The notes: generated from the letters alone by a model not told the origin. Numbered from the stretch's first letter, positions 57,804 through 59,951 are shown. The stretch: 64,000 nt of DNA from Promethearchaeota archaeon Loki_b31 (GCA_005222975.1 NJBI01000003.1:70962-134961); one strand, 5' to 3'. A program made the numbers and translations.

Positions 57804-57973
57804 TCCAAATGTTAACTTATTTATTTTTTTTAATAGTTTTGTAAATGAATGAAGTACTTAAAGTTTTTATTTAAATGGAAAATAAATCTCGTATAATTAT
57901 TAAATATAACAAATACTCTTTTAAGATTGCTTAATTATATTCAAAATAACTAATAAAATAAAAATTAATCAAA

Positions 57974-58117
57974 ATGTCTGAATGGAAATACAAAGTTAAA
58001 AAACCTGTAGCCGAAGCAGATTTTTGTACAACCTCTGGTTGAGGAATCGTTGACGGAATAATTTCGTGTATTAGAAATCTAAAAAAAAAACGCAAAGAAA
58101 AAAAAAGCCAAAAATAA
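57974..58117 (+). CDS. Candidate seleno-microprotein 1 (Cys-x4-UGA; TGA at 58040-42)
   Basis: MSEWKYKVKKPVAEADFCTTSG(*)GIVDGIISCIRNLKKKRKEKKSQK*. Followed by the conserved RNA fold. Confidence 0.55.
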
Positions 58118-58121
58118 ACTA

Positions 58122-58184
58122 AATCTCGAGGAGTAAAGCAAAAATGTTAGGTTTTATTCCTTAGTTCCGCAAGAACTTGAGATT
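58122..58184 (+). promoter_or_regulatory. Conserved three-stem RNA element, copy 1 (candidate 3' recoding element)
   Basis: P1 AATCTC/GAGATT; P2 GGAGTAAAGC/GTTTTATTCC with loop AAAAATGTTAG; P3 AGTTC/GAACT. Confidence 0.65.
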
Positions 58185-58330
58185 AACTCTTACATTTTTA
58201 CTAAACATCGATCTTTTTATTATTATAAAAAATTACATAATTGCGCAGTAACTTTATTTTTTATAAACCTCATCCTTAATACCCCTGATTTTTATAATCT
58301 TAACAATAAATTTAATAGTGAGAAAAACAC

Positions 58331-58510
58331 ATGTCGGAAGAAGACGAATTTGATTTTGGATTTGATGACAATTGCTACGAAACTAGTTGATCGTTACTAA
58401 CTATGTGGTACTTAAGAGCTTTAAAAACGCAGAAAACTAAAGAAAAACCGGAAAAAAAAACAAATATAATAAAAATCTCTATGATTAAGTCGTTAAATGA
58501 TAGGATTTAA
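58331..58510 (+). CDS. Candidate seleno-microprotein 2 (Cys-x4-UGA; TGA at 58388-90)
   Basis: MSEEDEFDFGFDDNCYETS(*)SLLTMWYLRALKTQKTKEKPEKK... GTGAG upstream. Would end at TAA 58467-69 if the A9 run is 1 nt too long. Confidence 0.55.
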
Positions 58511-58539
58511 TCAATAAGTTCTATGCCAGAATTTGAGAT
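58475..58539 (+). promoter_or_regulatory. Conserved three-stem RNA element, copy 2
   Basis: P1 ATCTC/GAGAT; P2 TGATTAAGTC/GATTTAATCA with loop GTTAAATGATAG; P3 AAGTTCT/AGAATTT. Confidence 0.65.
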
Positions 58540-58586
58540 AGAATTTCTTATTACTTTTTTATTTGAAAAACAAACAGAGAAAAACA

Positions 58587-59951
58587 TTAATAGGGTTTTT
58601 TTGACCCTTCTCCAACCTTTCTGTAAATAAAACCTTTTTCTTCAACCAATTTCTTGTCAAATATGTTCCTTCCATCTATAATAATCGGCGTTCTTACTTT
58701 CTTCTTTAAATCATCAAGATCGATATTGTAATATTCCTTATGGTTTGTTGCAAAGATTAATACATCAGCTCCTTTCACTGCTTCATTAAAATCACTTGTT
58801 AACTCAGTAAGTCTATAATCCCTTTCGTTGACATAAGGATCATGGGAGACATATATAATGTTATGAGAATGATATCGATTTTGTAATACCTTAACAATAT
58901 TTTCAGTTGGTGTATTTCTCACATCATCTGTATTAGCTTTATATGATACTCCTAAAAGTACAATCTTTATATTATCTACTAGTTTATGTGATTCTCTAAA
59001 TACATCCTCCATTAATTCTACCATATGATATGGCATATAATCGTTTAAATTCCGTGAATTGGGAATTATCTTGATCTTAGACTCATTTTTTTTTTCGGTA
59101 TATTTATTAAACCCGTGTAGAAGTAACCACGGATCCTTTGTTAAACAATGCCCTCCAACGCCAGATCCGGGATAATGCATCATCCTATCATGCCGTTGAT
59201 TTATTAACTCGATAATTTCATAAATATTACGATCAAAATCTTCGCAAAGCAATGCCATTTCATTTGCAAATGCGATATTAACATCCCTATACGCATTTTC
59301 AATACATTTAGTTAATTCTGAAGTAAGTGTGTCAGTTATTTGAAGTTCTTTTTTGACCACTTTTCCATATAGAAAACTTGCATTTTCATTAGCTTTTTTA
59401 CAGCCTCCTCCAATAACACGGGGAAAATCAGTAATGTATTCTATTAACTTTCCCGGCATGACTCGTTCAAACGAAAAAACAAGATAAAAATCGTGACATC
59501 TTTTTAGTCCGCTTCCTTCTTCCAAGATTAACTGTACGGTATTATCTGTTGTTCCAGGAGCTACAGTAGACTCTATAATTATCGTTGTTCCCTTTTTTAA
59601 ATGTTTTGATATTCTCTGAGAAACCTCTATTAAGGATTCATATCTAGGTAATCTATTTTCATCGACGGGAGTCTGAACATCAATTAAAATATAATCTGCA
59701 TCCTCAACATTATCATAATTATCAGTAACCTTAAACTTTCCATTCTTTACTACCCTTTCAATTAACTCATCTAATCCAGGCTCATCCCCTTCAAAAGGAT
59801 TTTTACCCTTATTAAGCCAATCAATTTTCCAACTTGATCTTTGAGACCTTCGTTGAATACCCGTAACATAGAAATCGTCTACATCAGCTAACAGAACAGC
59901 CATGGGAATACCAACGTATCCCATACCAATAACAACGATATTAGTAGGCAT
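58587..59951 (-). CDS. UDP-sugar (UDP-ManNAc/GlcNAc-type) dehydrogenase
   Basis: GMGYVG, ESTVAPGTT, KCIENAYRDVNIAFANE, GVGGHCLTKDP, YKANTDDVRNTP. Confidence 0.93.
   Translation of the reverse strand: MPTNIVVIGMGYVGIPMAVLLADVDDFYVTGIQRRSQRSSWKIDWLNKGKNPFEGDEPGLDELIERVVKNGKFKVTDNYDNVEDADYILIDVQTPVDENRLPRYESLIEVSQRISKHLKKGTTIIIESTVAPGTTDNTVQLILEEGSGLKRCHDFYLVFSFERVMPGKLIEYITDFPRVIGGGCKKANENASFLYGKVVKKELQITDTLTSELTKCIENAYRDVNIAFANEMALLCEDFDRNIYEIIELINQRHDRMMHYPGSGVGGHCLTKDPWLLLHGFNKYTEKKNESKIKIIPNSRNLNDYMPYHMVELMEDVFRESHKLVDNIKIVLLGVSYKANTDDVRNTPTENIVKVLQNRYHSHNIIYVSHDPYVNERDYRLTELTSDFNEAVKGADVLIFATNHKEYYNIDLDDLKKKVRTPIIIDGRNIFDKKLVEEKGFIYRKVGEGSKKPY

Follow-up and report, generated by a model that had tools for sequence, protein, structure and literature searches.

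A covarying three-way-junction RNA behind two very small UGA-containing genes of Lokiarchaeia is probably a lokiSECIS variant without the canonical core

The genome of Promethearchaeota archaeon Loki_b31 carries two copies of a compact RNA fold, each associated with a very small open reading frame (ORF) that holds an in-frame TGA, and the question raised by this locus is what the fold does there. The window analysed here is the whole 64,000-nucleotide stretch GCA_005222975.1 NJBI01000003.1:70962-134961, which lies on contig C78 of an assembly of 3.52 Mb and 31.5% G+C. A first-pass annotation, made from the sequence, had put the fold down as an undescribed cis-element for recoding, stability or protein binding, unrelated to the eukaryote-like SECIS of Asgard archaea. 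The latter, called lokiSECIS or Asgard type I, were described by Mariotti et al., 2016 (PMC4989117) and Huang et al., 2024 (PMC11227280), and every SECIS model given in the main texts of these papers and of a 2026 review (PMC13188914) demands a GA_[G/A]A core. The features of the locus are listed below, numbered from the first letter of the window, with the boundaries of the two element copies taken from a covariance model.

57974-58117, plus strand: gene A, an unannotated 47-codon ORF with an in-frame UGA at 58040-58042 and the stop codon TAA at 58115-58117
58122-58185, plus strand: element copy 1, a three-way junction (P1 58123-58127/58179-58183; J1/2, GA, 58128-58129; P2, 10 bp, 58130-58139/58151-58160, with an 11-nt apical loop at 58140-58150; J2/3 58161-58162; P3 58163-58167/58173-58177, with a 5-nt loop at 58168-58172; J3/1 58178)
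58195-58199, plus strand: run of five T, 10 nt past copy 1
58331-58510, plus strand: gene B, an unannotated 59-codon ORF with an in-frame UGA at 58388-58390 in the motif C-Y-x-T-S-U
58474-58541, plus strand: element copy 2, a three-way junction (P1 58475-58479/58535-58539; J1/2 58480-58481; P2 58482-58491/58504-58513, with a 12-nt apical loop at 58492-58503; J2/3 58514-58516; P3 58517-58522/58528-58533, with a 5-nt loop at 58523-58527; J3/1 58534)
58555-58560, plus strand: run of six T, 14 nt past copy 2, at the 3' end of a convergent dehydrogenase gene

Drawn on the window sequence with these boundaries, the copies, helices, linkers and loops fall where the first-pass annotation had them, save that its P3 with a 5-nt loop in both copies holds as such for copy 1, while P3 of copy 2 can be drawn either as 6 bp closing a 5-nt loop or as 5 bp closing one of 7 nt. 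The three-way junction is the minimum-energy fold of copy 1 (RNAfold, -19.6 kcal/mol, z -3.64), and for copy 2 RNAfold recovers P2, with z -2.96 for the total fold. The reverse complements, representing the minus strand, give z-scores of -0.40 (copy 1) and -1.42 (copy 2), so that the plus strand is the functional one and the earlier argument that G-U wobbles fix this strand holds. Between the copies, four P2 pairs differ, three on both sides and one on one side, and a G-C pair of P3 becomes G-U, exactly the changes that had been reported before. The letters AUGA occur in copy 2 only (58481-58484), where the U, G and A lie inside P2, and the quartet-equivalent positions of copy 1 are Watson-Crick or GU paired. 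The oligo-T runs that follow copies 1 and 2 may be archaeal termination signals, judging by their sequence.

Gene finders cut both ORFs at the in-frame TGA, and each ORF belongs to a family of related small proteins. Family A proteins (CxxU, about 42-57 aa) start with MSEWK in most members and carry C-x-x-U in nearly all, gene A of Loki_b31 having a two-residue insertion that turns the motif into C-x4-U. Family B proteins (Cx4U, about 44-59 aa) have an acidic N-terminus, then C-Y-x-T-S-U and an M-W-Y-x-R helix, and members of both families end in a Lys-rich tail. Pfam and NCBIfam searches with both small proteins matched no family. DNA searches in relatives show the whole 620-bp unit to be kept at 65-90% identity in many species, with both ORFs in frame and the TGA conserved at those loci. 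A profile search with family A found it in 46 of 54 genomes of the same taxonomic family, all 47 matches having exactly one TGA, and in 0 of 196 genomes from other families of the phylum; no Cys homologue of family A was found among 251 sampled genomes of the phylum. Family B was found in 64 of 135 genomes of the taxonomic family, with one TGA in 62 matches and TGT (Cys) at that position in four. Downstream of the UGA, extra states at codon positions 1, 2 and 3 number 6, 5 and 17 in family B and 22, 12 and 28 in family A, the same pattern as upstream, and this third-position variation, together with conserved residues 3' of the UGA, argues that translation continues past the UGA.

At its 3' end (58440-58510), gene B of the window has a run of nine A where close relatives have seven, and UAU where they have the stop codon UAA in the P1-P2 linker, so that its frame enters the element by at least 10 codons and ends at 58508-58510, being translated through P1 and half of P2 before the stop. 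This extension is either a real variant or a homopolymer error of the assembly. Most gene B orthologues stop before or at P1, and many family A genes stop inside P1 or P2, as gene B of Loki_b31 does; reading into the element would be compatible with SECIS action 28 codons earlier, though untidy. A UDP-glucose/GDP-mannose dehydrogenase-like gene (58587-59951, minus strand) converges on gene B and keeps this position in many genomes of the taxonomic family, including those in which gene B is without an element, with no evident functional link.

A narrow pattern consisting of the loop and 3' arm returned as many matches across the genome as its reversed control, and covariance models were used instead: R1, built from eleven ungapped elements of the family A type, and a second model, R2. 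On the 3.5-Mb genome of Loki_b31, R1 scores copy 1 at 91.4 bits (E 6e-26) and copy 2 at 42.5 bits (E 2e-9), these two being its only significant matches (next match E >0.6); against R2, copy 2 reaches 71.1 bits. Rfam 15 gave 0 matches in the whole window at gathering thresholds, and with E up to 10 the interval 57900-58620 returned chance-level matches only (snoRNA, miRNA and lncRNA models, at most 23 bits), far below the cut-offs. With R2, the element was found in 101 of 126 sampled genomes of the Promethearchaeia (Lokiarchaeia) family, where 10 genera have matches and most genomes have one or two copies; it was found in 0 of 24 genomes from other families of the class. Within the genus of Loki_b31 itself, 38 of 42 genomes have one or two copies. 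The sole case seen of more than three copies is a closed 3.3-Mb contig (G114; L078, L079), whose five elements belong to two A-B pairs at separate loci and to an extra tandem gene B with an element of its own.

The search with R1 recovered 33 elements in 20 related loci, and a larger set holds 39 elements from ten genera. In the 33-element alignment, which like that of the 39 was fitted to the model and so leans towards the model structure, 97.1% of cells are paired and 10 pairs are changed on both sides, values that 0 of 500 shuffles reach. In the set of 39, the paired share of cells is 97.0% and falls to 24-58% if the 3' partners are slid, and double-sided changes occur in 16 of 20 pairs, a result matched by 0 of 500 shuffles. 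These include all ten pairs of P2 and all five of P3 (P3 was counted on the model-fitted alignments only, MAFFT being without P3 register across paralogues). P2 alone is 96% paired across the 39 sequences, and the inner four P1 pairs (UCUC/GAGA) are essentially invariant. A structure-blind MAFFT alignment of P1 and P2 gives 96.6% paired, with 7 of 10 P2 pairs double-sided. The fold is well beyond chance, and its structure is under selection.

Outside the helices, the conserved letters are those of AAA and UAG (P2 loop) and of YGCRA (P3 loop). In the P2 loop, which is 11 nt long in elements of the family A type and 12 nt in those of the family B type, AAA is kept and the UAG end is found in 38 of 39 variant sequences. 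The three junction strands are short and variable: J1/2 is AA in 24 of 39, GA in 5 of 39 and something else in the remainder, and J2/3 takes 20 different sequences among the 39, with no conserved GA or AA.

These data bear on the idea that the element is a functionless relic of a decaying canonical SECIS (or an independent small RNA or repeat) and that genes A and B are pseudogenes or chance ORFs, an idea to which the missing core and the frame of gene B, shifted by the length of the A-run and entering the element, lend some colour. It is brought close to refuted by the conservation data, namely an element that persists over 10 genera, its P1 invariant and each pair of P2 and P3 showing compensatory changes, two ORFs kept in frame with coding-type substitutions, and a copy number of one or two in most genomes, and we give it next to no credence.

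All 62 elements examined, from 10 genera, follow a gene of family A or B (one gene is masked by N), with the UGA 67-98 nt upstream of P1 (median 85 nt for A and 83.5 nt for B). None of the 62 lies behind a gene that lacks an in-frame TGA, and copy number together with this strict gene linkage excludes a mobile repeat and a generic terminator. The first-pass annotation had raised both of these, and a known Rfam family as a third option; the element is not multi-copy and has no Rfam match. In two genomes (G108 at L075 and G106 at L084), gene A, which ends about 20 nt short of gene B, lacks its own element, and a single one follows B, an arrangement which suggests that one element may serve both UGAs. 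According to the main text of Mariotti et al., 2016 (PMC4989117), hdrA-vhuD pairs likewise share one lokiSECIS.

TGT stands in place of the UGA in four family B genes (G112, G084, G095 and G097). In the first three, the Cys gene has no element behind it (with filters switched off, the best score left is <10 bits), while gene A, 200 bp upstream in the same genomes, keeps both its UGA and an element of 61-70 bits. The fourth, G097, is an independent substitution and has a weakened copy of 38.7 bits, compared with 62-72 bits for the other family B elements of its genus, in which an invariant C of P1 has become A, P2 is mismatched at its base and the P3 loop is altered. A truly decaying copy such as this looks different from the elements behind UGA genes and scores far lower, which speaks further against a relic. 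Loss or decay together with a Cys codon is what a SECIS, and nothing else, would be expected to show, seen here in a small sample of about two independent events only, as G112, G084 and G095 are close kin, and in family B alone, family A being without a Cys form. Of the roles that had been proposed at first, recoding is thus well supported, with 62 of 62 elements behind a UGA gene and the element lost where the UGA has become a Cys codon.

The other roles proposed can be put together as a gene-specific 3'-UTR element that acts in mRNA stability, in 3'-end formation or by binding a regulatory protein, the UGA being recoded by some other signal. In its favour, an oligo-T run follows each copy within 10-14 nt, an invariant P1 suggests a sequence-specific binder, and the kink-turn core of Asgard SECIS is missing. 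No other signal was seen: canonical SECIS are absent from about 1 kb around genes A and B, and folding over the 63 nt that follow the UGA is unremarkable (mean z -0.43 for A and +0.12 for B). Moreover, the element is gone or decayed exactly at the Cys-codon genes, where the gene, its neighbours and the 3' region persist, and its loop and P3 module are those of bona fide SECIS in the same genomes. We therefore consider a role outside decoding unlikely.

The SECIS in question were located by a descriptor scan of the Loki_b31 genome, which found nine canonical lokiSECIS (AUGA, a 9-bp stem, an 11-nt loop, and GA or AA) behind four VhuD genes with two UGA each, one VhuU gene and other UGA-containing ORFs, in agreement with the description in the main text of PMC4989117. 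Their loops have an invariant A at positions 3-5 and AG at 10-11, the loop of copy 1 satisfies all five of these positions, and in one family A orthologue the loop matches a canonical one letter for letter. By RNAfold, at least six of the nine are closed by a P1 helix and have a hairpin between the 3' GA and the 3' arm of P1. A covariance model of the canonical elements, R3, matched such elements in 31 of 31 genomes of the taxonomic family. Thirty of these canonical elements, drawn from 13 genera, all have the side hairpin, which reaches at least 5 bp in 23 (vs 19% when the flanks are shuffled); 26 have the closing helix, and in 25 the side-hairpin loop includes GC, in most cases within CGCAA, UGCAA or CGCGA, which are the pentaloops of the variant. 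The canonical lokiSECIS of this family are thus three-way junctions themselves, with a conserved YGCRA-type side hairpin. The canonical elements scored are on contigs C17, C23, C28, C34, C46, C61, C87 and C90 of Loki_b31 (L089-L097) and in relatives (L104-L133).

Some canonical elements, outside the window, follow further unannotated UGA ORFs (C34 near 17921, C28 near 15767, C46 near 32388 and C87 near 31031). These ORFs comprise a small single-pass membrane protein (GG-I-U-P-C), a zinc-ribbon-like protein with several in-frame UGA, a 175-aa protein with C-U-U and one that is unclear, and are candidate additional selenoproteins.

The elements behind genes A and B resemble lokiSECIS in their position, in the 3' region directly behind UGA-containing Lokiarchaeia genes, in a 9-10-bp stem with an 11-nt loop (12 nt in copies of family B), A-rich at its start and with (U)AG at its end, and, for the lokiSECIS of this family, in the closing helix and the 3' side hairpin with its YGCRA loop. 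They differ in having neither the AUGA...GA (or GA_[G/A]A) quartet nor an internal loop, and therefore no kink-turn at the base of the stem: the 10 Watson-Crick or GU stem pairs run straight into the junction. P1, too, sets them apart, its sequence being invariant in the variant but covarying in canonical elements. With R3, the nine canonical elements score 38.5-51.2 bits; copy 1 reaches 10.4 bits (E 0.31 in 2.5 kb), by a local match to the stem-loop alone (model positions 7-35), and copy 2 reaches 5.8 bits. The absence of the AUGA/GA core and of the methanogen GAA/A bulge, noted in the first-pass annotation, is borne out by the 39 elements and by R3, but the claim of no relation to the eukaryote-like Asgard SECIS is contradicted, three of four modules being common to the element and canonical lokiSECIS. 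What remains of the "undescribed cis-element" is a probable recoding element that has no Rfam match; it is a derived variant of lokiSECIS and not a wholly new kind. By its core feature the variant falls outside the published lokiSECIS family, yet it evidently works like a lokiSECIS and derives from one.

The model given in the main text of PMC11227280 has a 7-15 bp stem, an 8-20-nt loop and a GA_[G/A]A core. Coded as a loose rule (GA_[G/A]A plus 7-15 bp with at most 2 mismatches and an 8-20-nt loop), it accepted 34 of 58 variants and 7 of 9 canonical elements; the fits in variants lay at inconsistent, non-homologous sites across the covarying helices, and the rule, which does not discriminate in AU-rich sequence, was set aside.

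Eukaryotic SECIS have apical-loop adenines at a fixed helical distance of about 10 bp from an irregularity below the stem, as stated in the main text of PMC4989117. The variant is like them (Rfam SECIS_1, form 1) in its 3'-UTR location and in having unpaired apical adenines about 10 bp above a structural irregularity, and unlike them in that a three-way junction stands in place of the GA/GA quartet, the long helix I and the internal loop. In methanogen SECIS, an asymmetric GAA_A bulge separates the lower stem, which is GC-rich, from a short upper stem of GC pairs; with these euryarchaeal elements the variant has in common its 3'-UTR location in an archaeon, but it has neither the GAA/A bulge nor GC-rich stems, P2 being an uninterrupted AU-rich helix of 10 bp. 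Bacterial SECIS are hairpins within the coding sequence, their start falling some 11-30 nt 3' of the UGA. The variant can overlap coding sequence in part, as they do, but it lies 67-98 nt past the UGA; a bacterial-type hairpin right after the UGA was rejected as a candidate, as no stable hairpin was found in the 63 nt there, which fold no better than shuffles. A k-junction is said to be a kink-turn elaborated into a three-way junction. The canonical elements of the family look like just such a kink-turn in a three-way junction; the variant keeps the junction and, unlike a k-junction, is without conserved tandem G-A pairs in it.

Loki_b31 has SepSecS (383 bits; contig C59, 32358-33515). About 1 kb from it on the same contig (34501-34681, minus strand), Aragorn calls a putative tRNA-SeC once introns are permitted, its anticodon being UCA and its intron about 90 nt long. 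In this genome, Aragorn without introns gave no tRNA-Sec, BLAST with the tRNA-Sec of a relative found nothing, and Rfam RF01852 stays below its cut-off; in the relative G079, a tRNA-Sec with a 24-nt intron just reaches the Rfam cut-off. In both genomes, the intron causes intron-blind searches to miss the tRNA.

This machinery bears on whether the element might promote read-through of the UGA with Cys, Trp or Arg, by a near-cognate tRNA, and not with Sec. Such a reading can point to the lack of a Cys homologue of family A and to the absence of the SECIS core from the element. Weighing more heavily are the CxxU and Cx4U contexts, which are typical of redox selenoproteins, an organism with SepSecS, tRNA-Sec and canonical selenoprotein genes, a loop and P3 common to the element and the SECIS of those genes, and Cys, the usual counterpart of Sec, as the natural replacement; decoding by a standard amino acid is, to our mind, very unlikely.

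Selenocysteine is very probably what the UGA encodes in both genes. The structure of the element, its conservation, its exclusive link to UGA genes, its loss in Cys forms, the modules common to it and canonical elements, and the presence of Sec machinery are established here. The element itself is probably a core-less lokiSECIS variant that serves two new families of micro-selenoproteins, a function read from comparative sequence evidence. Placed at the 3' end of a very small transcript, each copy would act as a SECIS and direct Sec to the single UGA of A or B. The variant would have been derived from canonical lokiSECIS by keeping the P1 closing helix, P2 with its 11-nt A-rich UAG loop and the P3 YGCRA hairpin, with the roughly 9-nt 5' junction strand (AUGA) and the 3' GA replaced by 2-3-nt linkers, and with P1 having become invariant in sequence (UCUC/GAGA). 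It would recruit the archaeal Sec elongation factor and Sec-tRNA, directly or through an adaptor, and the contacts may be the common apical loop, the P3 loop or both, the invariant P1 or the junction geometry taking the place of the kink-turn. As a counterpoint, if the Loki machinery truly needs a kink-turn, core-less elements could not work in the usual way. It is possible, if somewhat doubtful, that this machinery has no need of one and reads the A-rich...UAG loop at a fixed distance from the junction along with the YGCRA hairpin, a contact with UCUC/GAGA replacing the kink-turn.

Seven Asgard selenoprotein families are listed in the main texts of PMC4989117, PMC11227280 and PMC13188914, and these same main texts, figures and supplements aside, mention neither small CxxU proteins nor a core-less element nor the side hairpin. 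Genes A and B would add two very small families (about 45-55 aa; CxxU and Cx4U) to the seven, families that homology-based and SECIS-based searches would both miss, and the side hairpin of canonical elements would improve SECIS search models. An element that lacks the quartet, covaries and tracks the UGA in two families amounts to a natural dissection of which parts of the signal matter, and archaeal reporter systems exist (PMC9622424). If the Loki machinery indeed has no need of a kink-turn, the quartet of Asgard SECIS would be an accessory module (e.g. an L7Ae-type docking site) and not the essence of the signal, and the published roadmap from archaeal to eukaryotic SECIS would need a three-way-junction stage.
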